Counted from the first letter of the stretch, positions 25,611 through 50,853 are shown. The stretch is 64,000 nt of DNA from Candidatus Magasanikiibacteriota bacterium (GCA_014729395.1 WJJZ01000001.1:3634-67633), one strand, 5' to 3'. Program-made: numbers and translations. The notes: generated by a model from the sequence alone, not told the origin.

Positions 25611-25770
25611 ATATGCGGATAATCCGAATCTACGGATCGTTTGGTCTATAGCCCGATAATTATATATTGTTATCCAATATCCGTAACAATAAAATTTTCG
25701 TATTTGGTAATAATATATTGGATTAAAATTATACTATCCGCAAATCTGGATTATCCGCATATCCGCATTA
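25611..25770. repeat. MITE-like intergenic element, copy 1 (~160 bp, terminal inverted repeats ATGCGGATAATCC...ACGGAT / GGATTATCCGCATATCCGCAT, DnaA-box-like TTATCCGCA 9-mers)
   Basis: Shares termini and internal blocks (GGATCGTTTGGTCTATAG ... ATTATACTATCCGCAAATCTGG) with the copies at 26847, 34756 and 50646. Copy 1 is inverted relative to copy 2. Confidence 0.6.
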
Positions 25771-25774
25771 TTAT

Positions 25775-26476
25775 TTAAAAGAAGCCAGCCCCTCCGGTAA
25801 ACAACAAATATAGATAGACTATGATTGGCGTTATCCACTGAAAAGCAAAAAATATAAAAAACAATAGTATAAAAAAGCCATATTGCTCCAAGTACATTCG
25901 AACTTTATACATGGAATCCGGCAAGATTGCGTATAAAATTTTGGAACCGTCAAGCGGTGGTATGGGAATCAAATTAAAGACCGCAAGAAGGACATTGGCA
26001 TAAATAATAATTGCAACAAGAGCATATAAAACGGCAAGAGGTGAGCCACTAGCTATATCTAATATATATTGAGGTTTACTGATAACAGCTAGTAATAAGT
26101 CAATCTTTATTTTATCCGACAACGGTAACACCCATGATACCAATGAAAACATCAGAGCGAGAATTATATTAGATGCTGGACCGGCTACTGCCACCAAAGC
26201 AGGTCCCCATTTTTGATCTTTTAAATTATATGGATTGAAAGGTACCGGTTTGGCATAAGCAAACAAAAATCTACCACCGGTTATGATAAATAAAATCAAT
26301 GGCATTAACAAAGTGCCCCACGGATCAATATGAACTTTGGGATTCAAAGATAATCGCCCTGCATATTTGGCGGTTGGGTCACCCAGCTGATTTGCCATCC
26401 AACCATGAGCATACTCATGCAAAATCGCTGAAGGTATTATTATAATAAAGAAAAATAATAATGGTATAATATCCAT
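25775..26476 (-). CDS. membrane zinc metalloprotease, peptidase M50 (site-2 protease) family
   Basis: HEYAHG (HExxH) followed by RLSLNPKVHIDPWGT and multiple TM helices. Confidence 0.7.
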   Translation of the reverse strand: MDIIPLLFFFIIIIPSAILHEYAHGWMANQLGDPTAKYAGRLSLNPKVHIDPWGTLLMPLILFIITGGRFLFAYAKPVPFNPYNLKDQKWGPALVAVAGPASNIILALMFSLVSWVLPLSDKIKIDLLLAVISKPQYILDIASGSPLAVLYALVAIIIYANVLLAVFNLIPIPPLDGSKILYAILPDSMYKVRMYLEQYGFFILLFFIFFAFQWITPIIVYLYLLFTGGAGFF

Positions 26477-26479
26477 ATA

Positions 26480-26508
26480 TTGACAAAATATTGCTTAAAG
26501 GCTATAAT
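26480..26508 (+). promoter_or_regulatory. perfect sigma70-consensus promoter upstream of rpmB
   Basis: TTGACA-AAATATTGCTTAAAGGC (17 nt)-TATAAT. Confidence 0.6.
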
Positions 26509-26642
26509 TTTTACGCTAGTTAAGTATACAATGCTAAAAGATCATAGTCAAAACCATACTAAAAGTTAATTGGAAATTGAAGATTAAGATTTATGATTTT
26601 TATTAAAGATTAGTAATTAAGTGAATTAATAATTTTAAATGT

Positions 26643-26807
26643 ATGTCCCGAACATGTGAAAAATGCGGAAAAGGACCAAAAAAAGCTGTTACAAGAAGTC
26701 ATTCAAAAATTAGAACTCTTAGAACACAAAAAGCTAATTTGCAAAAAATTAACGGAAAAAAACTCTGTACCGCTTGCATAAGAACAATGGTCAAAAAAAC
26801 CGCTTAA
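26643..26807 (+). CDS. rpmB: 50S ribosomal protein L28
   Basis: 54-aa ORF MSRTCEKCGKGPKKAVTRSHSKIRTLRTQKANLQKINGKKLCTACIRTMVKKTA with L28 Cys-pair zinc-ribbon pattern. Below the ORF-track size cut-off. Confidence 0.8.
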   Translation: MSRTCEKCGKGPKKAVTRSHSKIRTLRTQKANLQKINGKKLCTACIRTMVKKTA

Positions 26808-26813
26808 AAATAA

Positions 26814-26840
26814 CTCCCCTTTCGCGAGGGGATTTGTTAT
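26814..26840 (+). terminator. rho-independent terminator after rpmB
   Basis: CTCCCCT-TTCGCG-AGGGGAT hairpin followed by TTTGTT. Confidence 0.5.
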
Positions 26841-26846
26841 AATATG

Positions 26847-27007
26847 ATGCGGATATACGGATAATCCAGATTTACGGATAGTATGATTTTATCCCAATAT
26901 ATTATTTATAAATCCAAAGTTTCTATTGATGCGGATAGCAATATAAATTATTGGACTATAGATCAAACGATCCGAAAATCCGCATTATCCGTATATCCGT
27001 GTTATTA
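26847..27007. repeat. MITE-like intergenic element, copy 2
   Basis: Termini GCGGATATACGGATAATCCAGATTTACGGATAGTATGATT ... GATCCGAAAATCCGCATTATCCGTATATCCGTGTTATTA. Ends 5 bp before tRNA-Pro. Confidence 0.6.
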
Positions 27008-27011
27008 CAAA

Positions 27012-27088
27012 CGGGGTGTAGCTCAGTTGGCTAGAGCGCGCGCATGGGGTGCGTGAGGTCGCTGGTTCAAGTCCAGTCATCCCGACCA
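27012..27088 (+). tRNA. tRNA-Pro (anticodon GGG), CCA encoded
   Basis: CGGGGTG-TA-GCTC-AGTTGGCTAG-AGC-G-CGCGC-ATGGGGT-GCGTG-AGGTC-GCTGG-TTCAAGT-CCAGT-CATCCCG-A-CCA. Confidence 0.85.
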
Positions 27089-27089
27089 G

Positions 27090-27166
27090 CGGGATATGGC
27101 CTAATTGGCTAGGGCGCACGCTTCGGGTGCGTGAGGTTCCGGGTTCAAGTCCCGGTATCCCGACCA
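27090..27166 (+). tRNA. tRNA-Pro (anticodon CGG), CCA encoded
   Basis: CGGGATA-TG-GCCT-AATTGGCTA-GGGC-G-CACGC-TTCGGGT-GCGTG-AGGTT-CCGGG-TTCAAGT-CCCGG-TATCCCG-A-CCA. Starts 1 nt after the CCA of the preceding tRNA. Confidence 0.85.
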
Positions 27167-27367
27167 TTCGACTCGTCCCGACTCTGTCGGGACTCACTCA
27201 TGGTCTTCGACCTTATAATATAAATGAATTATTGCAAATAAAAAAGTCGAATACCCTGAGCGAACTAAAGGATTGGAAGATAACATTATGTTTATTTATC
27301 ATTATCTTCAAATCAAAATATATATTGCAAATCAACTTTTAATTTAAAAAATAGATTAAAGAACACA

Positions 27368-27396
27368 AAAAATACAAAAGCCCCTATAAAGGGGTT
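27368..27396 (+). terminator. rho-independent terminator downstream of the tRNA-Pro pair
   Basis: AAAAGCCCCT-ATAA-AGGGGTTTTTG. Confidence 0.55.
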
Positions 27397-27618
27397 TTTG
27401 TGTAACCTACATAAAAACGACATGATCGCCATCCCTAATGTACTAGGTGGGTAACCGCAATCTTAGCCCACGAGCCAAGATGATATAAGTTTCCCTATGA
27501 GACGATTTCGACGAATGAGATTATGCCGTTTTTTTGCTGTAGGTGATTTTATTATATATTTATAAAATCCTTGTGTCAAATCTTAAAAAAATTAATTGTT
27601 GTTAAGCTGTGAATTATT

Positions 27619-27657
27619 TAAAAAAAGCAGGCATGTAGAAAACACACCTGCTGGTTT
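27619..27657 (-). terminator. terminator after the ATP-grasp gene
   Basis: AAAAAAAGCAGG-loop-CCTGCTGGTTTTT. A-run and T-run flank the hairpin immediately past the gene stop at 27664. Confidence 0.45.
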
Positions 27658-27663
27658 TTACTA

Positions 27664-28941
27664 TCACACCAGACGAAGTTCCGCCTGATGAAACAGATCT
27701 ACGGCCTGATCAAATGTTGGGGCAATGGCAATCAAGCCGGCTTTACCAAGACCCAGTGAAATGAGCGGGGTGTGATACATGAGCACACCCGAAGTGGAAT
27801 TACCATGATAAAACAGATCATCCAGCAGGGCACGTGCCTCGCTGTAGTCTTTGATCGACTTTCTTACCGAGACATTAGCCATTGCGACTACCACACCGGA
27901 GTCAAAATTTTCGACCACTGACCGGTGAACACCGGCCGTGTACATAGAATTCGACGTCCGTGCGTTGCATTCCAACAGAAAAATGTCATCATACTCTGTT
28001 AGAAGCAAGTCTAGACCAATCTTACCACGATAACCTGAATTCTGTACTACGGACATAAGCGGCATTGTCAACTCAACCGCCCTTTTCACAATCAACCATG
28101 ATAACGGACCCAAGTCACTACCGAAAGAGCCGACAATATTACCGCGGTGAGGAATACCACGTTTTAAGTCTTCCATCTGAACCAATTCCCCCATCGGCAC
28201 ACCATCCAAGACTTGTAGAGAGAAGCAATGCAAATGAATATCCATATCACTGATTTCAAAAACCAAAGAAAATGGATAGTGCTCATAAGCCTCTTCTACA
28301 ATCAATCGACTCGAATTTAACTCAGAGAGATCTCTATTTGATAAATCCTCTCCGGGGCCCAAAAAAACCATACCTTCTGATGAAGCCGCATCCGGAACTT
28401 TTACCACGAAACCGTGCGCATTACAGCGTTTACGAAGAGCAGTTCCCAATTCACCGTTTCCCGAATTCACGACCCGATGCTCCGGAAACAAATGAGACAA
28501 ACCCTTGCTAGAGGAGACCTTTCGCAAGTAATCTTTTCTACCCCAAATGTCGGCTATTTCCCTCCGCGGTGTGCAGGTGGTATCCCAGTCGAGCTCGGCG
28601 TCTCGAATAAAATTTTCAGCAGCCGGAGAAGCGCAAAAAAGATCTATCTTCGAGCCCTTGGAAACCACTCCCCTTACCATTCTCAAACTTTTAGAATCAG
28701 ACAAGACCCCGCCGTAAAGACCGGTGCCATTTACCGGCACTTCCACAACTTTAACTTTGGAACTTTTTACACCTGCTTCTTCATAATCACGCAGAAGCAG
28801 GGAAAGTTCCTCGTCACCGGAAGGCACCACTACTGTTCTACCGCCCAACAAGAGAGCGCGATAGCAGTACCTCTCTATGCCATCCACACGCTGTAGGTGC
28901 GGAAAGTCACCCGCAACATCGTGTATCGTCACGTTTCCCAT
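27664..28941 (-). CDS. ATP-grasp fold ligase (carboxylate-amine/peptide ligase type), elevated GC
   Basis: VVKVPDAASSEGMVFL (ATP-grasp P-loop-like) and IGLDLLLTEYDDIFLLECNAR (E-x-N-x-R catalytic motif). GGAGG Shine-Dalgarno 5 nt before the ATG. GC is visibly higher than the flanks. Confidence 0.6.
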   Translation of the reverse strand: MGNVTIHDVAGDFPHLQRVDGIERYCYRALLLGGRTVVVPSGDEELSLLLRDYEEAGVKSSKVKVVEVPVNGTGLYGGVLSDSKSLRMVRGVVSKGSKIDLFCASPAAENFIRDAELDWDTTCTPRREIADIWGRKDYLRKVSSSKGLSHLFPEHRVVNSGNGELGTALRKRCNAHGFVVKVPDAASSEGMVFLGPGEDLSNRDLSELNSSRLIVEEAYEHYPFSLVFEISDMDIHLHCFSLQVLDGVPMGELVQMEDLKRGIPHRGNIVGSFGSDLGPLSWLIVKRAVELTMPLMSVVQNSGYRGKIGLDLLLTEYDDIFLLECNARTSNSMYTAGVHRSVVENFDSGVVVAMANVSVRKSIKDYSEARALLDDLFYHGNSTSGVLMYHTPLISLGLGKAGLIAIAPTFDQAVDLFHQAELRLV

Positions 28942-29041
28942 GATATCCTCCGTGATTTTTTCCTTAGTAACAAAGGACTGGTCATATTACCAATATAATC
29001 AATCCATTATTAATAATATTTGAATGAACTAAATTAAAAAA

Positions 29042-29824
29042 CTACGAAATTTGAATAGCTTTTTTCTGTTTAATTTTTTCTTTCTGTAATTGTTGCTCAC
29101 TAACATAATCTACAAATAGATGAAGAACTTTTGCCGCTTCAGGGGTGTCTTTAAAGTCTTCAAGCAGTTCTTCCATAGTTGTACCTTTGGGTACATAATT
29201 GGGAAATAATTTCAGTCTGGCTCTCATTCTTTCTTGATTTAATTCGGGATGAAACATCAAACCCCAGGCGGGTTTATTTTTTAATCGAAAAGCCTGACAC
29301 GATACTTTTTTCGTTTTTGCCAACTGTAGCAAATGCGAAGGTAAATTAATTGGAGTGGTTTTATGACCAAATTGTGCTAAAAAAGTCGACTTTAACCGAC
29401 TGAAAATCGGATCTTTTTCCGAGTCAGGCAGCAATTCAACTTGAAACGTTCCAACTTCTTGAAATTTTTCATCAGTACTAAGATCAGCGCCTTGATGAAA
29501 TGATAATAAATGCCCACCATAACAAACACCCATTAATGGAATATTTTTTTCAAGTATAGAATCAATAAAACGAAGAGTATTTCTTATCCATTCATTATTT
29601 TTTACCTCTTCGGTACTCAAATAAAATTGTCCACTGCCACCCATTATAACACCGGCTACATCTTCCGGAATAAATTCGGGCAGCTCGCCTTTCGCTGCGT
29701 TTACATAAAACAGATCATATCCACAAGCTTTTAATTCTTCATTATAACAATCCTGCTCTTGGGGCTCGGATGCGTCTGTGCGAAACTGCACAATATAAAT
29801 CTTCTTTAAAATTTCATCGGGCAT
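29042..29824 (-). CDS. class I glutamine amidotransferase domain protein (GuaA-like GATase1)
   Basis: MGVCYGGHLL catalytic Cys motif and LMFHPE His-Glu motif. Confidence 0.7.
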   Translation of the reverse strand: MPDEILKKIYIVQFRTDASEPQEQDCYNEELKACGYDLFYVNAAKGELPEFIPEDVAGVIMGGSGQFYLSTEEVKNNEWIRNTLRFIDSILEKNIPLMGVCYGGHLLSFHQGADLSTDEKFQEVGTFQVELLPDSEKDPIFSRLKSTFLAQFGHKTTPINLPSHLLQLAKTKKVSCQAFRLKNKPAWGLMFHPELNQERMRARLKLFPNYVPKGTTMEELLEDFKDTPEAAKVLHLFVDYVSEQQLQKEKIKQKKAIQIS

Positions 29825-30047
29825 AATTTTTCTATTATTGATTAAAATTAATTTAATTTTAAACCGCCTATTCTTTAGGCGGCAGTGTTTCCAAGTATTT
29901 TTTGTTTTTTCTAAATACGCAAATCACTGCCCCCGGGAACTAGGAGTATAATATAAATAAATACAATCCATTGTGGCATGTGATTTTGCATATTAAAATT
30001 ATTATACTAATTTCTTGATTCACTTTCAATACTTGATTGTGGATATA

Positions 30048-30068
30048 GTTTTAGTGTGGTAAAACACT
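30048..30068. repeat. 21-bp palindromic direct repeat, left copy (GTTTTAGTGTGGTAAAACACT)
   Basis: 20/21 identical to 30654-30674. Internal inverted arms AGTGT/ACACT and GTTTTA/TAAAAC. Confidence 0.6.
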
Positions 30069-30151
30069 CTTCCGCTTCACCTGCTCACAATAATTTTATG
30101 AACAAATTGCGCGGACCCTTCAGACTTGGCCGCGCCATACTGAAGGGCCGT

Positions 30152-30364
30152 TTAACCAGGCCGGACTGTATTATTCTGCATGGAATAATCCAACCCGACG
30201 ATCACTCGATCCCAACTGTCCAATTGGGCCTCGAGTACTCTAGCCTCCTTTGTGTCCTCTCTTTCCCAGGCACTCAAAAGTGCCTCTTCAACCCTCCTCA
30301 TTTCCTCACCTACTTCTTTTAGCTGTTGGGCATAAAAGTGATAGGCTTTTCCATATTTAGTCAT
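30152..30364 (-). CDS. small hypothetical protein (70 aa), elevated GC, own promoter and strong SD
   Basis: MTKYGKAYHFYAQQLKEVGEEMRRVEEALLSAWEREDTKEARVLEAQLDSWDRVIVGLDYSMQNNTVRPG. AAGGAGG 6 nt upstream of the ATG. An overlapping plus-strand ORF (30056..30322) cannot be excluded. Confidence 0.35.
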   Translation of the reverse strand: MTKYGKAYHFYAQQLKEVGEEMRRVEEALLSAWEREDTKEARVLEAQLDSWDRVIVGLDYSMQNNTVRPG

Positions 30365-30500
30365 GTTGCACCTCCTTGTTTTTTCGAACGATTATCCGTT
30401 CGTGAAAACCCTCCCGGCTTTCACGAAAAGATAATTCGCCTCAAATTAAAACCATCCTGGTCTTCTCAGGATGGTTTACTTATAATTTTTTTATGCTCTT

Positions 30501-30529
30501 TATATATACGCATACTTTGCTTTTGTCAA
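30501..30529 (-). promoter_or_regulatory. near-consensus sigma70 promoter (TTGACA-N17-TATATA) for the small high-GC ORF
   Basis: The minus-strand reading is TTGACAAAAGCAAAGTATGCGTATATATA. Confidence 0.45.
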
Positions 30530-30653
30530 GTAAACCATCCTCGATGCCGGAATTAGGTTAATCACAATATTCATCACAAAATATGCCTTCCAGCTGAGGT
30601 TGCCTGCATAAAAGCGAATTGTATGAGTAAAATTATTCATAATTTTTTCTTCA

Positions 30654-30674
30654 TGTTTTAGTGTAGTAAAACAC
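30654..30674. repeat. 21-bp palindromic direct repeat, right copy (GTTTTAGTGTAGTAAAACACT)
   Basis: See 30048-30068. The two copies flank ~600 bp of higher-GC DNA. Confidence 0.6.
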
Positions 30675-30739
30675 TAACAGATTGTCAACAGATTTATCCA
30701 CAACTACACAGTAACAAAACAACCTAACGCCTTCAATAA

Positions 30740-31219
30740 TTACTCCCTTTCATCCTCCATGTAAACATGAAGGTACTCGGTTTTATCGTAATCAAATATT
30801 TCTTCTTCTTTAAAAAATCTTGGGACTTCTTGTTTAGCGGTATCAACCGAATCCGAGCAATGGACTACATTGCACATACCCATTGCTAAATCCCCTCTAA
30901 TGGTACCACCATCGGCTTCACCTGCATTTGTAACGCCGGCTATCAAACGTACGGCTGCGACTGCATTTTTACCCTCGGCACAAACCACTACCACAGGAGA
31001 AGATTTCATAAATTCTTCCAATCCCGGATAAAAAGGTTTTTCAACATGATGAGCATAATGTTCACGAAGTTTTTCTGTATCCAAAATCATCATTTTTAAA
31101 CCCACAACTTTCAATCCTTTCATCTCCAATCTTTTAAGAATCTCACCAACTAAGCTGCGTTGTACAGCATCCGGTTTTAAAATAAGAAGAGTTTTTTCAT
31201 AAATGCCTTCAAAATTCAT
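30740..31219 (-). CDS. ndk: nucleoside diphosphate kinase
   Basis: LKPDAVQR, GTIRGD and NVVHCSDS (active-site His) motifs. Confidence 0.9.
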   Translation of the reverse strand: MNFEGIYEKTLLILKPDAVQRSLVGEILKRLEMKGLKVVGLKMMILDTEKLREHYAHHVEKPFYPGLEEFMKSSPVVVVCAEGKNAVAAVRLIAGVTNAGEADGGTIRGDLAMGMCNVVHCSDSVDTAKQEVPRFFKEEEIFDYDKTEYLHVYMEDERE

Positions 31220-31423
31220 ATAATTTGCTTTAATTTGTTAAAAAGTTTGGGTAATTATAGCGAAAAAGAGGGTGTTTGTCAAGGAAATCATGTCAAAGTC
31301 TATTTTTATCAAAAACCCCGCACGGACGAACCAATGCGGGGGTTTGGGGGTTGTGGCCAAAAATTGCAGCGAGGCGTCCCGATTTAGTCGGGACCAAAGA
31401 TCAATTTCAAGGACACCAAGCAA

Positions 31424-31912
31424 CTACTTGCGACGGAGAACCCGATCGTAGACGCCCCAGACGTCGTCGAGCCAGTACCAGTCCCGAACCCACTCCTCGA
31501 CGTTGTTCCAGTAAACGCGACCGGCGTGCTCGGGATGGTCGGGAAGACGCCAGTCCTGGATCACGAAGACGAACTTGCGGAACTCGGACGGGATGTCCTG
31601 CCGGTTTTTGAACAGGTACCGGCCTTCGTCCTCTCCGCAAGGGTGTCCAGTCATCGCGTCCGTTCGCTTGATCATCGTGTGACCGACGACCGAGATCTCG
31701 CCGTCCCGCAGGAAGGCGTGTACCTCGTACGAACGGTTCTCGGGACCGATGTTCTCCATCGTGAGGATGTCAGGCTTGCCACTCTTGAGAGCGGCACGCA
31801 GAACGGTCGCCAGCCGTCCCTGATCCTCGATAAAGGTTTGTTTCTCGCTGGTTGTAAGATCGTCAGGCAGTTGCCTGATGACCGATGCGACGAACTCTCT
31901 GTCCTGATTCAT
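31424..31912 (-). CDS. hypothetical protein encoded by a ~60% GC segment (probable horizontal acquisition)
   Basis: Continuous ORF. Start assigned to the internal Met (MNQDREFVAS...) because AAGGAG lies 7 nt upstream. The ORF track extends it to 31981 into low-GC DNA. No confident family assignment. Confidence 0.5.
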   Translation of the reverse strand: MNQDREFVASVIRQLPDDLTTSEKQTFIEDQGRLATVLRAALKSGKPDILTMENIGPENRSYEVHAFLRDGEISVVGHTMIKRTDAMTGHPCGEDEGRYLFKNRQDIPSEFRKFVFVIQDWRLPDHPEHAGRVYWNNVEEWVRDWYWLDDVWGVYDRVLRRK

Positions 31913-32178
31913 TTTCTTTCTCCTTGGGCTTACCCCTTTGGGCTTACCCTGCTTTGGTCGAGAGAAATCCCCAACCTTCATTTGAATAACAATATTTTGT
32001 TAGTCAAAAGAAAGCAAGGAAAATCTATAACTAAAGAACAAATTTAACGCTTAATTATGGCATAAAAGTGCTAATTTGTCAAGCTACTTTATAATAATCA
32101 AAAATAAAAAATAGCTAAATTTAGCCATTTTTAATAACCAATCAGAATAAAATCCTGCGAACTGATCACTGTGAACTG

Positions 32179-34191: not shown

Positions 34192-34193
34192 AA

Positions 34194-34544
34194 CTATTCT
34201 ATTTTGGCAAAACCATCAAAATGTATGGTTTCATCATTTTTTTTAAATACCTCCTCTACCCTATATTTACCACTTGTATAAATTTCATCGTCTAAAATAA
34301 AATGCCTAGCTTCCAGAATCACAATACTTGCCAGTGGGCGTGACAATTCCTGATTACCTTTGGTTTCCAATAAGGGAATTTCTCCCTCAAGCCAATAATT
34401 TCTCTGACCCTTCTTCAAAAAATTATAAACCTGTCCAACCACCAACTCATCCGAAATACATTCTTCTGCTTTTCTATTGCCATTTTTGAATTCAAAATAA
34501 TTTCTTAGAGCCAAATCCGGATTAAATTCTACTTGGATACCCAT
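34194..34544 (-). CDS. hypothetical small protein, translationally adjacent to the helicase
   Basis: 116-aa ORF ending 2 nt before the helicase start. Possible small nucleic-acid-binding beta-barrel (ASCH/PUA-like), weak. Confidence 0.35.
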   Translation of the reverse strand: MGIQVEFNPDLALRNYFEFKNGNRKAEECISDELVVGQVYNFLKKGQRNYWLEGEIPLLETKGNQELSRPLASIVILEARHFILDDEIYTSGKYRVEEVFKKNDETIHFDGFAKIE

Positions 34545-34615
34545 AAATAAAAATTATTATAATCAACTAATTAAACAAAAAGTAGGAATACAGACTCATC
34601 ACACAACAACGCTTT

Positions 34616-34641
34616 GTCATTCCCGCGAAGGCGGGAATGAC
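34616..34641. repeat. REP-like perfect palindrome GTCATTCCCGCGAAGGCGGGAATGAC
   Basis: 11-bp arms around a GAAG loop. The same unit is present twice, inverted, at 62672-62743. Confidence 0.6.
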
Positions 34642-34755
34642 ATGGCAACACTAAAATTTATCCAGTGAATCCGGAGCTAGAAAAAAGACTTTAAATCAAT
34701 CATAGTTAACTTAGTGTATCTAATATTGAAAAAATTAGCAAAAAAGGGTATTATA

Positions 34756-36125
<1,370 letters not shown>

Positions 36126-36130
36126 TGGGA

Positions 36131-38853: not shown

Positions 38854-38863
38854 ATTGTTACAG

Positions 38864-38941
38864 ATTACGGATGAAACTAATTTACTGATTTACGAATCTT
38901 TAAAATGTATCCGTAAATCAGTTTCATCAGTAATCCGTAAT
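38864..38941. repeat. intergenic inverted repeat (ATTACGGATGAAACTAATTTACTGATTTACG / ATCCGTAAATCAGTTTCATCAGTAATCCGTAAT) between rplO and secY
   Basis: Two ~30-bp arms that are near-exact reverse complements, separated by AATCTTTAAAATGT. A related ...CAGTAATCCGT... motif lies at 41552-41576. Confidence 0.55.
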
Positions 38942-38954
38942 TTTTAATCCGTAA

Positions 38955-39395
38955 TTAAAAAATAATCTTACTTCCGCTCTTCTCTATTAATTCTATCGCT
39001 TTTTTGGTGGCAAGACAACCCTTGATTATAATTTTCTTCTTCAAATCACCATTAGCCAATATTTTTACTCCATTTTTGGGTCGGCTTATTAAACCTTTAC
39101 TCTTTAAAGAATAAGGTGTTACCAATTCACCATCTTTAAAATTTTTATCCAAGTCAGACAAAGATACGGTTTCCTTTTTTGGTTGACGACTATTAAACCC
39201 CCTCACTTTGGGAATTTTTTGCAGTGACTGTTTAAAACCACGCATCTTTGTACCGCTTTTTCCTCCGGATCTCGCTCTCTGTCCTTTCAAACCACGACCT
39301 GAATAAGTCCCTTTGCCTGAAGAATTTCCTCTACCGACCCTTTTCTTTGTTTTTTTTGAGTCAGTTGATTTAATTTTATGTAATTCTATTGCCAT
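38955..39395 (-). CDS. rplO: 50S ribosomal protein L15
   Basis: KRVGRGNSSGKGTYSGRGLKGQ... is typical of L15. Confidence 0.9.
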   Translation of the reverse strand: MAIELHKIKSTDSKKTKKRVGRGNSSGKGTYSGRGLKGQRARSGGKSGTKMRGFKQSLQKIPKVRGFNSRQPKKETVSLSDLDKNFKDGELVTPYSLKSKGLISRPKNGVKILANGDLKKKIIIKGCLATKKAIELIEKSGSKIIF

Positions 39396-40416: not shown

Positions 40417-40428
40417 ATAATTATTTTA

Positions 40429-40974: not shown

Positions 40975-41063
40975 ATTTTCATTATTACTGTTTTTTACAC
41001 AAATTACACTGAGCAAATGATTATTAAATCAATAATCCTACCTAATCAGTATAATCTGTGTTA

Positions 41064-41453: not shown

Positions 41454-41579
41454 AATAGTTTATTTTAGTTGATAGTTTTAATTAATTAATTACAAATTAC
41501 TGATAATACTGATTTACACCCGCCTGCATATACAGGAATAGTTGAATCTACGGTAAAACAGTTTGATCAGTAATCCGTC

Positions 41580-41765
41580 TTACCAGCTTGACTTTCGTAC
41601 TCCCGGTAACTTTCCATCATTGGCCAATTCTCTAAAACAAATACGACATAGGCCAAATTTTCTCATATAAGCTCTTTTTCTACCACACTTCCAACATCTC
41701 CTCACTATTCTGGTGCTGAATTTGGGTTTCTTATTAGATTTTGCTATTTGTGCTTTGGTAGCCAT
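41580..41765 (-). CDS. rpsN: 30S ribosomal protein S14 (zinc-binding type Z)
   Basis: 61 aa with the [23 protein letters not shown] Cys4 motif. Confidence 0.9.
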
Positions 41766-41778
41766 AATTATTATTTTT

Positions 41779-42324: not shown

Positions 42325-42329
42325 AACAA

Positions 42330-42653: not shown

Positions 42654-42674
42654 ACTAATATTGTCTGATTCATT

Positions 42675-43046: not shown

Positions 43047-43057
43047 ATCTTACAAAA

Positions 43058-43327: not shown

Positions 43328-43329
43328 AA

Positions 43330-43581
43330 TTATTTTTTATCTTTTTCATTATTTTCTTTGTTGGTTTCAATCACTTTTTTCTGTTTTTGCTCTCCTCTTT
43401 GTCTCATTTTCAGCATTGTTAAAATTCTTGCAACTGTTTTTTTTGCCTGTTTTATCTTTGACGGATCTTTCAACTGCCTTTCACTGGCTTTGAAGTATAA
43501 CTCACGCACCAGTTCTCTTTTCTCGTGTAGTAAATCCCGTAATTCTTTTTCAGTTTTATATTGTAAATCTTCAAATTCCAT
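43330..43581 (-). CDS. rpmC: 50S ribosomal protein L29 with K-rich C-terminal tail
   Basis: L29 helix-rich N-terminal 60 aa, then a KKVIETNKENNEKDKK tail. Confidence 0.85.
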   Translation of the reverse strand: MEFEDLQYKTEKELRDLLHEKRELVRELYFKASERQLKDPSKIKQAKKTVARILTMLKMRQRGEQKQKKVIETNKENNEKDKK

Positions 43582-43583
43582 AT

Positions 43584-43997
43584 TTATTGTCTAGTAACAA
43601 ATTTTACTTTAACCGGAAGCTTATGTCCTGCAAGCGTCATAGCTTCTCTGGCTTTTTCTTCGGGAATTCCGCCCATTTCAAACATAACTGTCCCCGGTTT
43701 TACGGTGCAGACATATCTATCAGGCGCGCCTTTACCACCGCCCATAGGTAACTCATTACCCTTTTTTGTAACCGGACGATCGGGAAAAATTCTTATCCAA
43801 ATTTTACCACCTCTTCTAACGTATCTTGTCATTACACGCCTGGCAGCTTCAATTTGCCTGGAACTGACCCATGCATGGCCTAATGATTTTAAGCCATAAG
43901 ATCCGAAAGATACGGTGTTGGTTCTACTGGCTACACCTTTATTTCTTCTTCTCAATTTATGCCATTTTCTATGTTTTACTTTTTTTGGTATCAACAT
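43584..43997 (-). CDS. rplP: 50S ribosomal protein L16
   Basis: [14 protein letters not shown]... is typical of L16. Confidence 0.95.
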
Positions 43998-44001
43998 ATC
44001 A

Positions 44002-44739
44002 TTACTTTCTATTCTGCTTATTTATTTTTTTATTACTCTTTTGTTTGTTTTCTTCAGAATCACTGAATTTATCTTTTCTGCCAAACACTTCCCCATGACA
44101 TATCCAAACTTTAATTCCAATCTTTCCATAAATCGTATGTGCCTCAACAAAAGAATAATCAACATCGCTTCTTAGAGTTATTAGCGGTACCGTTCCGGCT
44201 GATAAAACTTCTGTACGAGCTATTTCCACACCATTCAACCGACCGGACATCATAATTTTAACACCCTTGGCTCCTGCTTTCATTACTCTATCTATTCCCT
44301 GTTTCATTACTCTTCTAAAAGGAATACGTCTTTCTATTTCACTGGCCATACTCTGAGCCATTACAGAAGATGATAAAGCCGGTGATCTAACCTCTTTTAT
44401 ATTCAATTTCACTTTTAAAGACATTTGCAAAAATTTCCTTTCGATATGTTTACGAACCATCTCCAAGCCTTGCCCACCGCGTCCAATTATGAAACCGGGT
44501 TTAGCAGCAAATATGGTTATTTTCATATTTTTGGGACCTCGTTCAATTCCAATCGAATCAATATGCGCATCCTTGAATTTTTTCATCAAAAATTCACGGA
44601 TACGAATATCCTGCTCGGAATACTTGGCATATTTATCTTTGCTATACCACTTTGAATCCCATGTATATATTACCTGGGTTCTGTGTATTTTTGGATGCAC
44701 TTTATGTCCCATAAATATTTTATCTTTCTTTAGTACCAC
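44002..44739 (-). CDS. rpsC: 30S ribosomal protein S3
   Basis: KH plus S3-C domains. C-terminal K-rich tail. Confidence 0.95.
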
Positions 44740-44757
44740 TGTACTAGATAGAATTAA

Positions 44758-45237
44758 TTAATTATTTTTTTCTTTGTTATTCTCTTTACTCTCTTTATTC
44801 ACTTTTTTATCTTTCTTCTTATCGCTCTTTTTTTCTTGTTTCTCTTTTTTTTCATCTTTCTTTACATCTTTTTTATCTTTTTTTGATTTTTTTTCTTCAG
44901 CATCTCCCTCTAACACGATTGTTATGTGAGATGTTCTCTTTCTGATAGGGGTCGCTCTACCCATTGCTCTTGGCATCCATCTTTTCAATACCGGCCCACC
45001 ATCGACAAAAGCTTTTTTTATTACTAATGTATCTTTTTTCATTTCATGATTGTGTTCTGCATTTGCAATTGCACTGTTTAAAAGTTTTAAAAGCGGCTTT
45101 GCAGCATCCTTTTTTGAAAACATCAGTTGCTCTATCGCTTTTTCCACTTTCATGCCACGTATAAGATCGGCCAATAGTCTTACTTTTCTTGGTCCTATTC
45201 TTAAAAATCTTAATTTTGCTTGTGTTTGCATTTTCAT
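44758..45237 (-). CDS. rplV: 50S ribosomal protein L22 with K-rich C-terminal tail
   Basis: L22 core through ITIVLEG, then a KKSKKDKKDVKKDEKKEKQ tail. Confidence 0.9.
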   Translation of the reverse strand: MKMQTQAKLRFLRIGPRKVRLLADLIRGMKVEKAIEQLMFSKKDAAKPLLKLLNSAIANAEHNHEMKKDTLVIKKAFVDGGPVLKRWMPRAMGRATPIRKRTSHITIVLEGDAEEKKSKKDKKDVKKDEKKEKQEKKSDKKKDKKVNKESKENNKEKNN

Positions 45238-45239
45238 AA

Positions 45240-45530
45240 TTATTGCATTGGTTTACCCTGCTCTTTTGCCATTTTACCACCATGAACAACAAACTTTCTT
45301 GTTGGGGCAAATTCACCTAATTTATGTCCGACCATGTTTTCTTCTATAAATACATTTAAAAAATCCTTACCATTGTGAACCAAAAAAGTCATACCAACCA
45401 TTTCAGGTGTAATTGTGCTTGCTCTGGCCCATGTTTTAATGGGTTTTCGATCACCTGAATTTTTTGCCTTCTCCACCTTTTTCATCAATTTTTCATCTAC
45501 AAAAGGTCCTTTTTTTAAACTTCTTGACAT
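45240..45530 (-). CDS. rpsS: 30S ribosomal protein S19
   Basis: [19 protein letters not shown]... is typical of S19. Confidence 0.95.
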
Positions 45531-45614
45531 ATTAACATTGATTTATACAGAGTATCGTTGATTACACGGATTTATGTGGATCATTTCAAACCCTGAACTT
45601 GTTTAATCCACACA

Positions 45615-45656
45615 AATCTGTGTAATCTGTGATTTAATCTGTGTAATCTGTGATTT
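45615..45656. repeat. 21-bp tandem repeat x2 (AATCTGTGTAATCTGTGATTT) in the rplB-rpsS spacer, next to a TGTGGAT...ATCCACA inverted repeat
   Basis: Read directly. The 124-bp gap inside the S10 operon is unusual. Confidence 0.55.
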
Positions 45657-46503
45657 ATTTTTTTCTTTTCTTCTTTCTGGGGGATAGAATAAATTTATTG
45701 CTCCATTTTTTCTTATTTCTACTTTTAACACCAAGAGCTTTCTTTCCCCACTTTGTTTTTGGTCCACCACGTAACCCAATCGGAGAATGGCCTTCACCAC
45801 CGCCATGGGGATGATCAACCGGATTCATATTCTTACCCTTAACTGTCGGTCTCCAACCTAATTTTCTTTTTCTACCCGCTTTACCAAGCCTCACCAGCTT
45901 GTGATCGGGATTACTTACTTTGCCCACTGTGGCCATACATTCCTTACTTATCAGTCTAACCTCTCCGGAAGGTAATTTCAACTGTGCGTACTTACCCTCT
46001 ACAACTTGCAACTGAGCTCCATTTCCCGCTCCTCGAACAATTTGTCCGCCGTTTCCGGGGTTTAATTCCACATTATATACAAACATACCAACCGGTATAT
46101 GCTTTAAAGGCATTCTTACACCCAATTCTGCTTCAATCTTTTTTTCTGAACTAATAACTTTGTTCCCAACCTTCATCCCTTCAGCTGCTAAAATATAACT
46201 CTTATTTCCATTTTCATATTTTATCAGGGCAATTCTTGCACCCCTGTTTGGGTCATACTCAATCGACTCAACTATTGCCGGAATATCAAAAATATTACGT
46301 TTAAAATCAATTTTACGATATAATCTTTTTACACCACCACCACGATGCCTAACGGTAATTTTACCCATATTATTTCTTCCGGCCTTTTTCTTTATCGGCG
46401 CAACCAGGGACTTATCCGGTCTTTTTTTTGTTATATCAGAAAAATCCTCAACACTTGCTTTACGTCGTCCGGGTGTGGTTGGTTTGTATTTCTTTACTGC
46501 CAT
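45655..46503 (-). CDS. rplB: 50S ribosomal protein L2
   Basis: L2 sequence (GRNNMGKITVRHRGGG..., HPHGGGEG). Confidence 0.95.
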   Translation of the reverse strand: MAVKKYKPTTPGRRKASVEDFSDITKKRPDKSLVAPIKKKAGRNNMGKITVRHRGGGVKRLYRKIDFKRNIFDIPAIVESIEYDPNRGARIALIKYENGNKSYILAAEGMKVGNKVISSEKKIEAELGVRMPLKHIPVGMFVYNVELNPGNGGQIVRGAGNGAQLQVVEGKYAQLKLPSGEVRLISKECMATVGKVSNPDHKLVRLGKAGRKRKLGWRPTVKGKNMNPVDHPHGGGEGHSPIGLRGGPKTKWGKKALGVKSRNKKKWSNKFILSPRKKKRKK

Positions 46504-46521
46504 ATTATATTAAACAATACT

Positions 46522-47004
46522 TTATACACCTTCATGAATATTTATGCTTTGTCCTTCAGCTAATGTTATAATAGCTTTTTTCCAATCACTTCTTTTTCCG
46601 GAATATCTTCCAAATCTAACCGTCTTTCCTTCCATATTCATTACTCTTACTTTCTTGGGGGTTATTCCGTATATTTGTTCGATTGCTCTTTTAATATCAA
46701 ACTTGTTAGCTGTTCTATGGACTACAAAAGTATAAACACCTTTTGATTCCAAACCGGCGGCCTTTTCGCTTATTACAGGTCTAATCAAAATTTTATAGGC
46801 GTTTCCTTTTTTGGATTTCTTTACGGTTTTTTTCTTCGCTGTTTTTTTGCTTTTTTTCTGATCAGTCGGCTTACTAGACTTTGTCTTTGTGTGTTCTTTT
46901 TTCTTAGAGGCAACTTTTTTCTCAACCTCTTTTTTAGAACCGTCTTCAACTTCCTCCAACTGTCTTTTTTTTAATTTCTTTGTCCACTTATTTAAAAAAC
47001 TCAT
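46522..47004 (-). CDS. rplW: 50S ribosomal protein L23 with ~65-aa K-rich N-terminal extension
   Basis: L23 core (YKILIRPVISEKA...) preceded by a low-complexity KKEVEKKVASKKKEHTKTK lead. Confidence 0.9.
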   Translation of the reverse strand: MSFLNKWTKKLKKRQLEEVEDGSKKEVEKKVASKKKEHTKTKSSKPTDQKKSKKTAKKKTVKKSKKGNAYKILIRPVISEKAAGLESKGVYTFVVHRTANKFDIKRAIEQIYGITPKKVRVMNMEGKTVRFGRYSGKRSDWKKAIITLAEGQSINIHEGV

Positions 47005-47006
47005 AC

Positions 47007-47648
47007 TTACTTATTATTTTTTTCTGAAAATCTTTCCTCTAAAACTTTTACAGCTTTTTTGTCCAAAATTAAATATTGATGATGCAATAAATCAATTATA
47101 TTTACATCCTGAACTCTTTTTACTTCAATATTCGGGATATTTCTTACAGATCTTATTAATTTTTCATCCTTTTTATCAACTAAAATCGCAGTCTTTTTTC
47201 CGACAGAAGGTAACTTATTCAGTACATCAGCTACAGTCTTTGTCTTTCCGTCAAATTTAATCTGTTCCATTATAATCAATTTATCATTCGACACTTTATC
47301 TGACAGACACATCCTGGTAGCAATACTTTTTAATTTTCTATTTATTTTTTTCTTAAAATTTCTGGCTTTTAACGGACCAAAAGTCACACCACCACCAGAC
47401 CACAAAGGAGACCTGATTGAACCATGTCTGGCTCTACCGGTACCTTTTTGCCTCCACGGTTTTCTACCACCACCACGCACTTCAGACCTATCTTTGGCGT
47501 GAGCTAATTTTTGACGTCTATTTGACATGGCTGCAGAATAAACCTGATGTACTACCAACTCTTTTACTTTCTGACCAAAAACAAAATCGCTAAGCTTAAC
47601 ACTTCCTTTTTCATTTCCCTCTAGATTGTAAATCTTAACTTCTGCCAT
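47007..47648 (-). CDS. rplD: 50S ribosomal protein L4
   Basis: L4 sequence and position. Confidence 0.9.
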   Translation of the reverse strand: MAEVKIYNLEGNEKGSVKLSDFVFGQKVKELVVHQVYSAAMSNRRQKLAHAKDRSEVRGGGRKPWRQKGTGRARHGSIRSPLWSGGGVTFGPLKARNFKKKINRKLKSIATRMCLSDKVSNDKLIIMEQIKFDGKTKTVADVLNKLPSVGKKTAILVDKKDEKLIRSVRNIPNIEVKRVQDVNIIDLLHHQYLILDKKAVKVLEERFSEKNNK

Positions 47649-47657
47649 AACATTTAT

Positions 47658-48578
47658 TTATTTGTCTTGTTTTTGTTCAGATGTACTTTCATTCTTCTTA
47701 TCACCTTTATCTTTGTTGGCTGTTTCATCTTTTTTATCGTTTTTTTCTTCTTTTTTATCAGTATTACCCTCTTTTGGTTTTATTTCTTTTTCTTTTTTTG
47801 AGCCATCATCCTCTTTTTTATTTTCTTTACTGTCTTTACTATCTTTGGCTTCTTTTTTATTATTGTCTTGACTTTCATCATTGCTTTTATCTATATCCTT
47901 TTTTTCTTTGGAACTTGTCGCTTTTTCTTCCTCTTTTTGTATTTCAATCTCACCTTCACCGGTACTGATTACCAATAAAGAACCGCGAGCACCGGGCAAA
48001 GCTCCTTTTATCATCAACTCATCTTCTTCCGGATGAACTTCTATAATTTCCAAGTTTTTAACGGTCACTCTATTATCTCCCATGTGTCCAGGCATCCTTT
48101 TTCCTTTGAAGACTCTCGCAGGATCTGTTGCACCAATACTACCCGGCATCCTTAATTGATCTTTATGACCATGACTGGCCGGTGAACCGGCAAAACGATG
48201 TCTTTTAACCACACCTTGGAAACCATGTCCTTTTGCATACCCCATTACAGCCACTTTTTCACCCGGACTAAAAATTCCTACACCAAACTTATCACCCACC
48301 TTTAGCTTGTTTTCGGCATCAACCGTAAAATCTTTCAGATACCTCACAGTTTTATCGCCTTTACTGACTGCCTTAAGATGATTTTTTTGAGACTTGTTTA
48401 ATCTAAATACTTTTTGTTCGCCAAACCCAACTTGAACGGCATTCTTTGCGTCTTTTTCTTTACTTTTTACCTGTGTAATCACACAAGGTCCGGCTTTTAC
48501 TCGAGTAACAGGAACAACATTCCCGTCATCTTTGAAAACCTGAGTCATTTCCATTTTTTTTCCCAAAATAAATTTCAT
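47658..48578 (-). CDS. rplC: 50S ribosomal protein L3 with ~100-aa K/E/D-rich C-terminal extension
   Basis: L3 core for ~200 aa, then a low-complexity tail to 306 aa. Confidence 0.9.
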   Translation of the reverse strand: MKFILGKKMEMTQVFKDDGNVVPVTRVKAGPCVITQVKSKEKDAKNAVQVGFGEQKVFRLNKSQKNHLKAVSKGDKTVRYLKDFTVDAENKLKVGDKFGVGIFSPGEKVAVMGYAKGHGFQGVVKRHRFAGSPASHGHKDQLRMPGSIGATDPARVFKGKRMPGHMGDNRVTVKNLEIIEVHPEEDELMIKGALPGARGSLLVISTGEGEIEIQKEEEKATSSKEKKDIDKSNDESQDNNKKEAKDSKDSKENKKEDDGSKKEKEIKPKEGNTDKKEEKNDKKDETANKDKGDKKNESTSEQKQDK

Positions 48579-48600
48579 ATAAATCTAGTTTGTTAGATTC

Positions 48601-48669
48601 AAAAAACTAGAAGGAAGTACTAATAAATATCTAATAATCCATTAGAATTTCCTTCTAGCCTTTTTCTGC
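48601..48669. promoter_or_regulatory. strong hairpin (10-bp stem CTAGAAGGAA/TTCCTTCTAG, 32-nt loop) flanked by A-run and T-run, 25 bp upstream of the rplC start
   Basis: Read directly. Lies inside an unusual 260-bp spacer between rpsJ and rplC. Candidate attenuator or leader structure. Confidence 0.5.
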
Positions 48670-48838
48670 TTTCCGCAGTAGGCTGTATATTGTGTAAAAT
48701 TTTTACAAATTATCACCTCTTGATTATTCGTCAAATGCGGCAGATGTTTTCTCTAATTTTAGAGATCTTATCTGCTTTAAATGCGAATAATATAACGGGC
48801 TTATTTTAATGCAATTTGAAAATTATGTCAAGAGCTAA

Positions 48839-49222
48839 TTAAGACATTTTTATCTCTACATCCACACCACTTGGCAAATTTAGATTCATTAGCGCATCGA
48901 TTGCCTTTGGGTTGGGATTCAAAATATCGATTAACCTCTTATGCGTTCTCATCTCATACTGTTCGGATGAAGTTTTATGCACAAAAGTTGACCGATTTAC
49001 ACTGAATTTATTTTTCTCGGTTGGCAATGGAACAGGCCCTACCACCTTGGCATTATTTCTTTCTGCCGTTTCGATAATTGTTTTCGTAGCTTGATCAATT
49101 ATTTTATGATCATAAGCTCTGATTTTTATACGAATCTTTTGTCCGATTTCCGGTTTCTTTGCCGTTGTTTGTGTGTCTGCTTTTTTTGTATCAGTTTTTT
49201 TGCTCTTTGTTGTCGTTGTCAT
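48839..49222 (-). CDS. rpsJ: 30S ribosomal protein S10 with ~25-aa K/T-rich N-terminal extension
   Basis: S10 core ([16 protein letters not shown]...) after the [25 protein letters not shown] lead. Confidence 0.9.
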
Positions 49223-49234
49223 AATTTATAATCC

Positions 49235-49279
49235 CTTTAAAGAACAACCCCGCCTCTCTCAAGAGACGGGGTCTGTTTA
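49235..49279 (-). terminator. terminator/attenuator hairpin between tuf and rpsJ
   Basis: CCCCGCCTCTC-TCAA-GAGACGGGG with T-rich minus-strand tail. Only 61 bp between the genes. Confidence 0.5.
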
Positions 49280-49283
49280 AATT

Positions 49284-50474
49284 TTAATTAATAATTTTTG
49301 TAACCACACCTGCACCAACAGTTCTTCCGCCTTCACGAATAGCGAATCTCATTTTTTCTTCCATTGCAACAGGTACGATTAACTTAATCTTGATGTTTAC
49401 AGTGTCACCAGGCATGACCATTTCAGTACCTTCCGGTAGTGTGACTTCTCCGGTTACATCTGTAGTTCTGATATAAAACTGAGGTTTATATCCATTAAAA
49501 AATGGTTTGTGTCTACCACCTTCTTCTTTGGTAAGAGCATATACTTCTGCTTCAAATTCAGTATGCGGAGTAATAGTACCCGGTTTAGCAAGAACCTGAC
49601 CTCTTTCAACATCATCCTTTTTGGTACCTCTTAAGAGAATACCGGCATTATCTCCGGCCTGACCTTGGTCAAGACTCTTGTTAAACATTTCCACTCCGGT
49701 GACAGTGGTCTTGGTAGTATCTCTTCCCATTCCAACAATCTCTATTTCTTCCCCAACTTTTACAACACCTCTGTCTATACGACCAGTGACAACAGTACCT
49801 CTACCTTCAATAGAAAAGACATCTTCAATAGGCATCAAGAAATCTTTGTCCAGATCTCTTTCCGGTTCAGGAATATATTCATCCAATTTATTTAGCAATT
49901 CCATAATTGGTTTACTTGCCTCTTCATCTCCCGGATTTTCCAAGGCTTTCAGGGCTGAACCGCGAATTATCGGGGTAGTATCCCCAGGGAATTCGTATTT
50001 CTTTAATAGATCTTTGATCTCTTCTTCAACCAAATCTATTAATTCCGGGTCACTAACCTGATCGACTTTATTTAAAAATACCACAATATAAGGAACACCA
50101 ACTTGTCTGGCAAGCAGGATATGTTCTCTGGTTTGAGGCATAGGACCATCGGCGGCAGAGACCACCATAATCGCACCGTCCATTTGTGCTGCACCTGTAA
50201 TCATGTTTTTTACGTAGTCCGCATGTCCGGGACAGTCTACGTGAGCATAGTGACGTTTTTCAGTTTCATACTCAACATGAGCGGTAGCAATTGTAATGCC
50301 ACGCTCTTTTTCCTCCGGAGCGGCATCGATCTCATCAACTCCTTTTGTTTGAGCTGATAAACCATGCGCTTCTGCAACTTTTAAAATTGCAGCCGTAAGA
50401 GTCGTTTTACCATGGTCAACGTGACCAATAGTACCAACGTTAACGTGTGGCTTTGTTCTTTGAAAATCTGCCAT
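49284..50474 (-). CDS. tuf: elongation factor Tu
   Basis: 396 aa with [18 protein letters not shown] and NKVD motifs. Confidence 0.97.
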
Positions 50475-50645
50475 ACTATTAACTTATGTCCGCACTATTT
50501 CCGAGTGGTCGGAATAGATTTGTAACCCAGCGGTAATAATTTATTTAAATTTAGTAAATTTATTACATTTATGTAATAAAAATAGACGCTTTTAAAGCGC
50601 CTTGATTATATACTAATTCAAAAAATTCGTCAAGGGATAGCCTTT

Positions 50646-50853
50646 GGATAACCTGCGGATAAATACGACACGGATTTTCGTATAAATTCAGATTTACGGA
50701 TCGTTGAATTATGAACCAATGGAATATTTAGATATACTTTAATATAAAAAAATAATCCTTTGTTTGTTAATGATATACTGGACTAATACCAATCTATCCG
50801 AAAATCCGCACCTGCCTGCCGGCAGGCAGGTTATCCGTATATCCGCATTATTA
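50646..50853. repeat. MITE-like intergenic element, copy 4 (with embedded CCTGCCTGCCGGCAGGCAGG palindrome)
   Basis: GGATAACCTGCGGATAAATACG...CAGATTTACGGATCGTTG ... CTATCCGAAAATCCGCACCTGCCTGCCGGCAGGCAGGTTATCCGTATATCCGCATTATTA. Lies between the tuf 5' region and the 50851 gene. Confidence 0.6.

Follow-up and report, generated by a model that had tools for sequence, protein, structure and literature searches.

Outward-facing box arrays in Candidatus Magasanikbacteria: a probable REPIN/MITE-like repeat family linked to genes for GxxExxY nucleases

MITEs (miniature inverted-repeat transposable elements), such as the Correia elements of Neisseria and ERIC, are non-coding, intergenic sequences of 100–250 bp that are bounded by terminal inverted repeats, often lie directly upstream of genes, fold back strongly, differ in presence and absence between relatives, and may have promoter-like ends (PMC10969869). 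REPIN-RAYT systems of Pseudomonas and Enterobacteria are organized differently: short intergenic repeats are dispersed as inverted doublets and singlets, and one small gene, flanked by the same repeats in inverted orientation, appears to descend vertically at a fixed junction while gene-less repeats spread (PMC3116915, PMC3337134, PMC5581495). Rickettsia palindromic elements (RPEs), which have no associated gene, are palindromic selfish repeats; the small, reduced genome in which they live tolerates them even in frame within coding genes (PMC10969869). A 2024 review of prokaryotic MITEs lists none for the candidate phyla radiation (CPR), or Patescibacteria (PMC10969869). Here, we describe four gene-less elements of 170–225 bp in a 64-kb stretch of DNA from a Candidatus Magasanikiibacteriota bacterium (GCA_014729395.1 WJJZ01000001.1:3634-67633). 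This whole stretch is referred to below as the window, and its coordinates are counted from its first letter. The elements belong to a repeat family found in Candidatus Magasanikbacteria and related CPR bacteria. They are probably non-autonomous members of a selfish family of the REPIN/MITE type, the arms of which are putative binding arrays for a nuclease of the GxxExxY family.

Each of the four elements carries terminal inverted repeats (the arms) around an interior of ~95 nt that all four have in common. The arm is a unit of 33 nt, consisting of four tandem boxes of 8–9 bp, ATCYGTAA-ATCYGNATT-ATCCGNAT-ATCCGNAT, followed by an AT-rich tip (TATTA). Among 75 distinct arm instances, box starts were found to lie 9, 9 and 8 nt apart, and the information is confined to 33 positions (−8 to +24) holding the four ATCCG-type boxes, with the surrounding DNA unconserved. 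Within the arm, the boxes are conserved and the positions between them are variable; any internal hairpin is broken by these variable positions, leaving an array of direct tandem boxes and no short palindrome. In the window copies, the arms measure 33–38 nt and resemble one another from copy to copy at 79–89%, and the inverted repeat is prolonged by the AT-rich tip TAATAAT ... ATTATTA. Similarity between the two arms of one element hardly exceeds that between arms drawn at random (27.6 versus 26.5 of 33 positions), so the conserved feature is the boxes and not the pairing of the arms. Selection for an RNA or DNA hairpin as the conserved feature was rejected on this near-random similarity, together with the frequency of solo arms.

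The elements are insertions, because the orthologous sites are empty in six syntenic relatives, which were chosen through ribosomal protein S12 and not through the arm motif. One of these, L116 (~70–75% nucleotide identity in general), is colinear with window positions ~15000–38000 at 66–96% nucleotide identity, a region that includes both tRNA-Pro genes, L28, M50, S12-S7-EF-G, UvrD and tgt; no arm was found in it, and all three testable sites (those of copies 1–3) are empty. Copy 1 (25600–25773) is flanked on one side by the stop codon of an M50 protease gene (25775–25777) and on the other by the −35 hexamer of the rpsL promoter. In L116, the M50 stop codon lies ~15 nt from the S12 −35, where copy 1 sits in the window. 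Copy 2 (26840–27007) follows the L28 terminator (26815–26832) and a TATAAT (26838–26843) and precedes tRNA-Pro(GGG), which starts at 27012, whereas the L28-to-tRNA-Pro spacer of L116 is ~70 nt long, with TATAAT 10 nt before the tRNA and no element. Copy 3 (~34751–34964) ends 3–5 nt from the ATG of tgt (34968), and its left end abuts a promoter-like TTGAAA-17-TATTAT (34726–34754). tgt and UvrD are 65 nt apart in L116 and 776 nt apart in the window, where the interval holds copy 3 and an open reading frame (ORF) of 116 aa. The tgt genes of L102 and L103 have no element; each is preceded by a normal sigma-70 promoter and a leader of ~20 nt that lacks a Shine-Dalgarno sequence. L103, L104 and L105 likewise contained no arm, and L102 and L107 each have one degenerate arm or pair, at other positions. 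The empty sites contradict the possibility, raised in the initial annotation of this DNA, that the copies are conserved regulatory regions at orthologous positions.

When two arm patterns were searched for in publicly available contigs, matches appeared in 5 genome contigs and 88 metagenome contigs, nearly all of them Magasanikbacteria-like; one arm-bearing contig carries a 16S gene only 89% identical to that of the window. No arms were found in viral contigs. The ~95-nt interior of the window copies was detected in none of the other fetched loci by blastn-short or nhmmer; thus, the long form was amplified within the lineage of the window. Elsewhere, the arms occur as solo arms (the commonest form), as compact palindromes and as in-frame copies inside genes. 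Neighbouring arms within 700 nt face outward in 17 cases ('<>') and inward in none ('><'), with one '>>' and three '<<' arrangements, and the outer end (..ATATCCGNAT) always points toward the flanking gene. The gaps between paired arms fall into three classes of 6–33 nt, 90–98 nt (the window copies) and 397–456 nt. Placement relative to genes is tight: 25 arms lie ~0–7 nt from the stop codon of a gene reading in, 16 lie 2–11 nt before a start codon, and a single arm can form the whole spacer between two operon genes, in either orientation.

In-frame arms were found in the dus genes of three species (L024, L035, L042) and in L078 and L019, one arm each. In Dus, a reverse arm supplies 11 codons, read as SGY[TSP]DNPDL[RQ]I, directly after the GNPW motif, and the protein continues normally thereafter; the dus arms of the three species keep 30 of 30 specified positions inside coding DNA. 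Such copies within genes characterise RPEs and similar palindromic elements of selfish DNA (PMC10969869). A further arrangement was observed in L042 (1504–1553), where two arms are joined head to head via their outer boxes within the dus frame, the sole inward-facing ('><') junction seen. Speculatively, these fused arms resemble the abutted-ends junction of a circular transposition intermediate.

The widest gap class always encloses the same ORF of ~133 aa. The encoded protein matches PF13366 (PDDEXK_3; E 6e-25, 88–91 bits against a cut-off of 22) and TIGR04256 (GxxExxY; E 9e-23, 81 bits against a cut-off of 35), and Pfam and NCBIfam give nothing else. Arms bracket this gene in at least 8 independent contexts, among them gatA/LOG (L043/L053, L056), gap/pgk (L045), gpmI/gpmI (L095) and methyltransferase/nusA (L041/L091). 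Homologues picked by protein similarity alone proved to be bracketed as well, namely P0142 (L109/L110) and P0136 (L111–L115), both between gap and pgk. The right arm provides the stop codon of the ORF, in the form of the TAA in its first box (ATCCGTAA). Empty junctions are seen in L105 (gap-TAATT-ATG-pgk and gpmI-TAAATT-ATG-gpmI), and L094 has the right arm only, 9 nt before pgk. Residues D71, E81 and K83 are invariant in 35 sequences, and the D...E-x-K catalytic motif is intact; in the predicted model (pLDDT 91), for which Cas4, lambda-type exonucleases, Hjc and restriction enzymes are the nearest solved folds, the protein looks like an active PD-(D/E)XK nuclease. A sequence search for solved structures of the GxxExxY protein itself found none.

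Bracketing extends to GxxExxY genes outside Magasanikbacteria. A Falkowbacteria homologue, 50% identical and located between argS and glyS, is enclosed by a 29-nt, 86% inverted repeat of different boxes, ATACTAAT (L117 3959–3987 / 4413–4441). The GxxExxY gene of a Treponema saccharophilum plasmid is bracketed by ACACGGATTCG / CGAATCCGTGT (L118 1449–1464 / 1894–1909), and no bracketing inverted repeat was found at the Persicobacter gene (L119). The four window copies contain no ORF. The genome of the window very probably encodes the GxxExxY protein MBD3311134.1: the window's S12 is 100% identical to MBD3310892.1, and the two proteins lie 242 accession numbers apart. As for the cognate transposase that a MITE-like element calls for, gene-carrying elements with the same arms exist, but their gene encodes a PD-(D/E)XK nuclease and no recognised transposase. 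The searchable literature yielded only incidental mentions of GxxExxY, PF13366 or PDDEXK_3, with no account of the arms or of a GxxExxY-repeat association, and nothing on Magasanikbacteria with an inverted repeat.

Among described systems, REPIN-RAYT is the closest working analogy, although the family does not belong to it. The gene here encodes a PD-(D/E)XK GxxExxY nuclease and theirs a Y1/HUH tyrosine transposase; the unit here is four tandem direct boxes and theirs a REP hairpin with a GTAG head, an imperfect short palindrome of which two inverted units make a REPIN, so the doublet layout alone is analogous. In addition, the host is a CPR bacterium, and arms are also found in frame inside genes. 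The MITE-like structure proposed in the initial annotation is essentially right: the elements lack coding capacity, fall within the MITE size range of about 50–500 bp, end in terminal inverted repeats, are dispersed (4 copies in 25 kb) with presence and absence, have a common non-arm interior, are missing from orthologous sites of colinear relatives, and have gene-carrying relatives with the same ends. Points of difference from MITEs are the tandem sub-repeats that make up the inverted repeats, the divergence of the copies and the lack of a known DDE transposase partner. RPE sequences are unrelated to those described here, and the four window copies, unlike RPEs in coding genes, are all intergenic. 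23S rRNA intervening sequences are built as an inverted repeat, a small ORF of ~120–135 aa and a second inverted repeat, the same layout as the nuclease-carrying form. The elements described here differ in lying in mRNA operon spacers and promoter regions, where RNA-level excision is not needed. In the contig with P0136 (JGI sample 3300072015, genes 5001–7106), GxxExxY lies between gap and pgk, and PF05635 (23S_rRNA_IVP) lies between pgk and SIMPL. Both are small-ORF families known from rRNA intervening sequences, here in adjacent operon spacers. The met boxes of MetJ, two to five abutting 8-bp near-palindromic boxes bound cooperatively by small dimers, offer a likeness in manner of working only, since each of the abutting boxes here is likewise nearly palindromic (ATCCGGAT). 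No ribbon-helix-helix protein or other regulator was identified here, and the arrays are outward-paired and insertion-like.

The family comprises three forms: arm pairs 6–33 nt apart, a 160–225 bp form with a genome-specific interior, and pairs ~400–455 nt apart around the nuclease gene. In the mechanism proposed here, the GxxExxY nuclease would bind the box arrays, several small subunits to an arm, synapse two outward-facing arms and cut the ends. It would thereby mobilise or maintain gene-less copies in trans, with the gene-carrying copy mostly passed on vertically. Candidate routes of movement are cut-and-paste, copying by repair after cleavage (homing-like) and resolution of an extruded cruciform. 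A broader proposal, which we put forward tentatively and to which we give a substantial but less than even chance, is that the widespread GxxExxY proteins (PF13366/TIGR04256) are the enzymes of an undescribed class of selfish element, similar to REPIN-RAYT but on another catalytic fold. Such a class would consist of a minimal PD-(D/E)XK nuclease gene inside inverted arrays of 8–9-bp boxes, with a product that recognises these boxes and mobilises or maintains gene-less arm pairs and solo arms in trans, and its elements would colonise operon junctions, promoters and reading frames of tiny CPR genomes.

Several observations weigh against a nuclease-mobilised family. The window copies are old, at 51–89% identity, and give no sign of recent activity. 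Comparison of filled and empty sites revealed no unambiguous direct repeat that could be a target-site duplication, and the AT-only termini (TAATA/TATTA) mask direct versus inverted repeats. No GxxExxY gene or relic was found in the window or its copies with a profile of 50 homologues against six-frame peptides (best E 0.2, elsewhere) or with tblastn; on these searches, the candidate explanation of the interior as a decayed GxxExxY gene was rejected. To our knowledge, a 133-aa nuclease with no extra DNA-binding domain matches no known transposase. GxxExxY proteins at the same junction cluster (70–74% identity versus 55–68% otherwise), which suggests that the gene-carrying copy is mostly inherited vertically and may not be mobile. 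Flanks were inspected for two GxxExxY genes from outside the CPR, and only one of the two is bracketed by an inverted repeat. Finally, the strong conservation of arms in coding DNA could mean that the host selects for the site.

This last point leads to an alternative in which the arms are site arrays for a host DNA-binding protein (a global regulator, a nucleoid protein or an insulator), kept at transcription-unit boundaries by host need. Binding to the four tandem ATCCGNAT boxes would then be cooperative, as for MetJ, and GxxExxY would be just one of many flanked genes. Conserved boxes with variable positions between them, in arms whose partners match little better than random ones, are in keeping with selection on sequence and not on pairing. 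The same may be said of the persistence of arms in coding DNA and across lineages as far apart as 89% 16S identity, of their close fit to stops and starts, and of the location of the window copies beside rpsL, tuf, tRNA-Pro and tgt. Yet a site needed by the host sits poorly with six relatives that retain the same genes and promoters around empty sites, with a strictly outward orientation, and with arms that point at the 3' ends of genes more often than at the 5' ends. Nor would it account for an interior common to the four window copies and present in no other genome, or for the repeated bracketing of one and the same nuclease gene, including at loci picked by protein alone. We consider this explanation unlikely, and the binding-site module for a global regulator, which the initial annotation had held to be an equal alternative, is disfavoured by the outward pairing, the in-frame copies, the nuclease linkage and the different boxes at the diverged homologue. 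A further alternative concerns the 9-mers TTATCCGCA and TTATCCGTA, which had been noted as DnaA-box-like and do lie 1–2 mismatches from TTATCCACA; the elements would then be DnaA-titrating or DnaA-regulated modules. These 9-mers, however, are just a T plus box 3 (TATCCGNA) of the four-box array, and thus part of its third ATCCGNAT unit. Window sites at ≤1 mismatch number 36 against 23 ± 5 expected, barely above chance, and only 3 of them lie inside elements. There is no GC-skew switch at the elements and there are no origin features, the elements are missing from relatives, and the Falkowbacteria equivalent is built of ATACTAAT boxes. A DnaA role is therefore extremely improbable.

A role in RNA or expression deserves separate weighing, as single strands of the elements have strong folds, with z-scores of −8.4 (copy 2) and −6.1 (copy 3) as RNA and of −3.9 (copy 1) as DNA, and in three cases a copy separates a promoter or terminator from the gene that follows. 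At their left ends, copies 1–3 adjoin a −10-like hexamer (TATAAT, TATAAT and TATTAT). Only ~5 nt separate the right end of the element from the starts of tRNA-Pro and tgt, which leaves no space for a promoter of their own. The hexamers make transcription of copies 1–3 probable, and in copies 2 and 3 the transcripts would probably be long foldback leaders, possibly as a side effect; transcription would add a 160–210-nt foldback leader to tRNA-Pro and tgt. The elements could, accordingly, be kept as portable promoters or foldback leaders, with hairpins that are cut by RNase III or protect mRNA ends, as has been demonstrated in Correia and REP elements; Correia elements contain promoters and serve as substrates of RNase III (PMC10969869). 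Against such a role stand the solo arms, which are unable to form a hairpin and yet are the commonest form, lying in operon spacers in both orientations. The two arms show no compensatory conservation, and an arm contains no conserved sigma-70 hexamer pair; relatives express the same genes with no element, and the elements match no Rfam family above gathering thresholds. An outward promoter for leaderless transcripts was considered, since a −10 at NNTTAT of '..CCGNATTATTA' would put +1 on nt 1 of tRNA-Pro and on the A of the tgt ATG. It was rejected as a general role because the arm-to-ATG spacing ranges over 5–13 nt (16 gene starts), which makes a fixed leaderless start unlikely, and because 25 arms point into gene 3' ends. 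Similarly, the boxes are no substitute ribosome-binding site, as the 16S 3' end is the canonical GGATCACCTCCTTTCT (CCUCC). Maintenance for expression thus seems quite unlikely, and a promoter or RNA-processing role may exist secondarily, of the kind seen in Correia elements (PMC10969869). As a separate observation, many starts lack a Shine-Dalgarno sequence despite the canonical 16S tail (tgt at 34968, rpmB at 26643, and starts in L002/L003/L047/L071), as do the starts 5–13 nt after an arm.

Within the window, the four copies were confirmed beside rpsL, tRNA-Pro, tgt and tuf, as initially annotated; the copy coordinates given here are refined ones that take in the AT-rich tips (TAATA/TATTA). 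In copy 1, the arms occupy 25605–25637 (minus sense) and 25736–25768, with a 98-nt interior and TAATA/TATTA tips. The promoter of the rpsL-rpsG-fusA operon, a perfect sigma-70-type TTGACA-17-TATAAT (25568..25596, minus strand), lies 3 nt outside this copy and is host DNA; element-free relatives have an equivalent promoter. The arms of copy 2 occupy 26847–26879 (minus sense) and 26970–27002, and its inversion relative to copy 1 is borne out by mutual reverse complementarity of 81% over 101 nt and 82% over 62 nt. In copy 3, each arm is interrupted by a nested 20-nt GC palindrome: the left arm (34753–34768 and 34789–34809) by a degenerate version (34769–34788), and the right arm (34905–34920 and 34941–34960) by an exact one (34921–34940). 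Copy 4 (~50634–50858) has a degenerate left arm (50670–50702), with more CGGAT boxes out to ~50636, and a right arm (50795–50810 and 50831–50850) split by the exact palindrome at 50811–50830. Its left end abuts the −35 of a TTGACG-17-TATAAT promoter upstream of tuf (50633..50605, minus strand). The palindrome, CCTGCCTGCCGGCAGGCAGG, whose presence in copies 3 and 4 the initial annotation had correctly reported, has two exact matches in the window and a third with 2 mismatches, where 0 are expected; in the arms, it sits precisely at the junction of boxes 2 and 3. It may represent a mini-insert in its own right or a hairpin with a function. A related sequence, CCTGCCTGTCGGCAAACAGG, was seen apart from any arm in a different genome (L094 ~4160–4190).

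The shared termini survive proper alignment, as a four-way MAFFT alignment of the copies holds end to end with a mean column identity of 66%. Copies 1 and 2 are ~80% identical throughout, arms and interior alike; between this pair and copies 3 and 4, the arms remain 63–89% identical while identity in the interior falls to 51–56%. The copies thus form two subfamilies with common ends. At ≤2 mismatches, TTATCCGYATATCCG has 7 matches in the window against 0.14 expected, and the eight arms of the four copies are the only significant matches to an nhmmer arm profile in the 64 kb, beyond two weak degenerate relics. One of these, a compact arm pair with ATCCG/ATCAG boxes in the secY/rplO spacer (38855–38955; profile matches 38865–38953, E 0.2–11), and the other, an arm-like palindrome with ATCAG/ATCCG boxes in a ribosomal-protein operon spacer (41488–41585; profile match 41498–41517, E 0.04), are probably decayed copies of the same family.

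Further features were observed near the copies. The 116-aa ORF between UvrD and copy 3 (34194–34544, minus strand) has no Pfam match and is missing from L116; it may have arrived with copy 3 or independently. The two tRNA-Pro genes beside copy 2 are 1 nt apart in the window (27012–27166) and 283 nt apart in L116 (8340–8773), where an 81-aa ORF is called between them. The promoter upstream of tuf is followed, directly after its −10, by a terminator-like hairpin with a T-run, AGGCGCTTTAAAAGCGTCT ATTTTTATT (50584–50602, minus strand), which may be a leader or attenuator. An unrelated hairpin repeat, TGTCATTCCCGCGAAGGCGGGAATGACA, occurs once upstream of copy 3 (34615–34642) and again at 62671–62698 / 62717–62744, where two copies form a perfect inverted pair of 28 nt with 18 nt between them; similar 'gtcattgcgag...' hairpins were seen in L093 and L100. 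In the S12 search, nine homologues of ~200 aa (P0001–P0009, from ENA contigs <2 kb) outscored the exact 139-aa match. Their N-terminal extensions are probably gene calls running into the upstream spacer.

Genomes of CPR/Patescibacteria are ~1 Mb in size and very gene-dense, and dispersed repeats are not expected in them; the family described here nevertheless sits in core housekeeping loci, including rpsL, tuf, tRNA-Pro, tgt, the glycolysis operon and dus. There are practical consequences for annotation. The arms can mislead gene callers, since real proteins gain 11 in-frame codons from them and some stop codons are theirs, and 160–210-nt foldbacks between promoters and genes matter for annotating and reconstructing expression signals in metagenome-assembled genomes of CPR bacteria. 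What was not expected is the probable partner enzyme. The function of the GxxExxY family is listed as unknown (PMC3424549), and its link to the arms offers a concrete candidate, namely the binding or cutting of ATCCGNAT box arrays. If this link is true, the family would represent a second, independent instance of the REPIN-RAYT lifestyle, built on a different enzyme.

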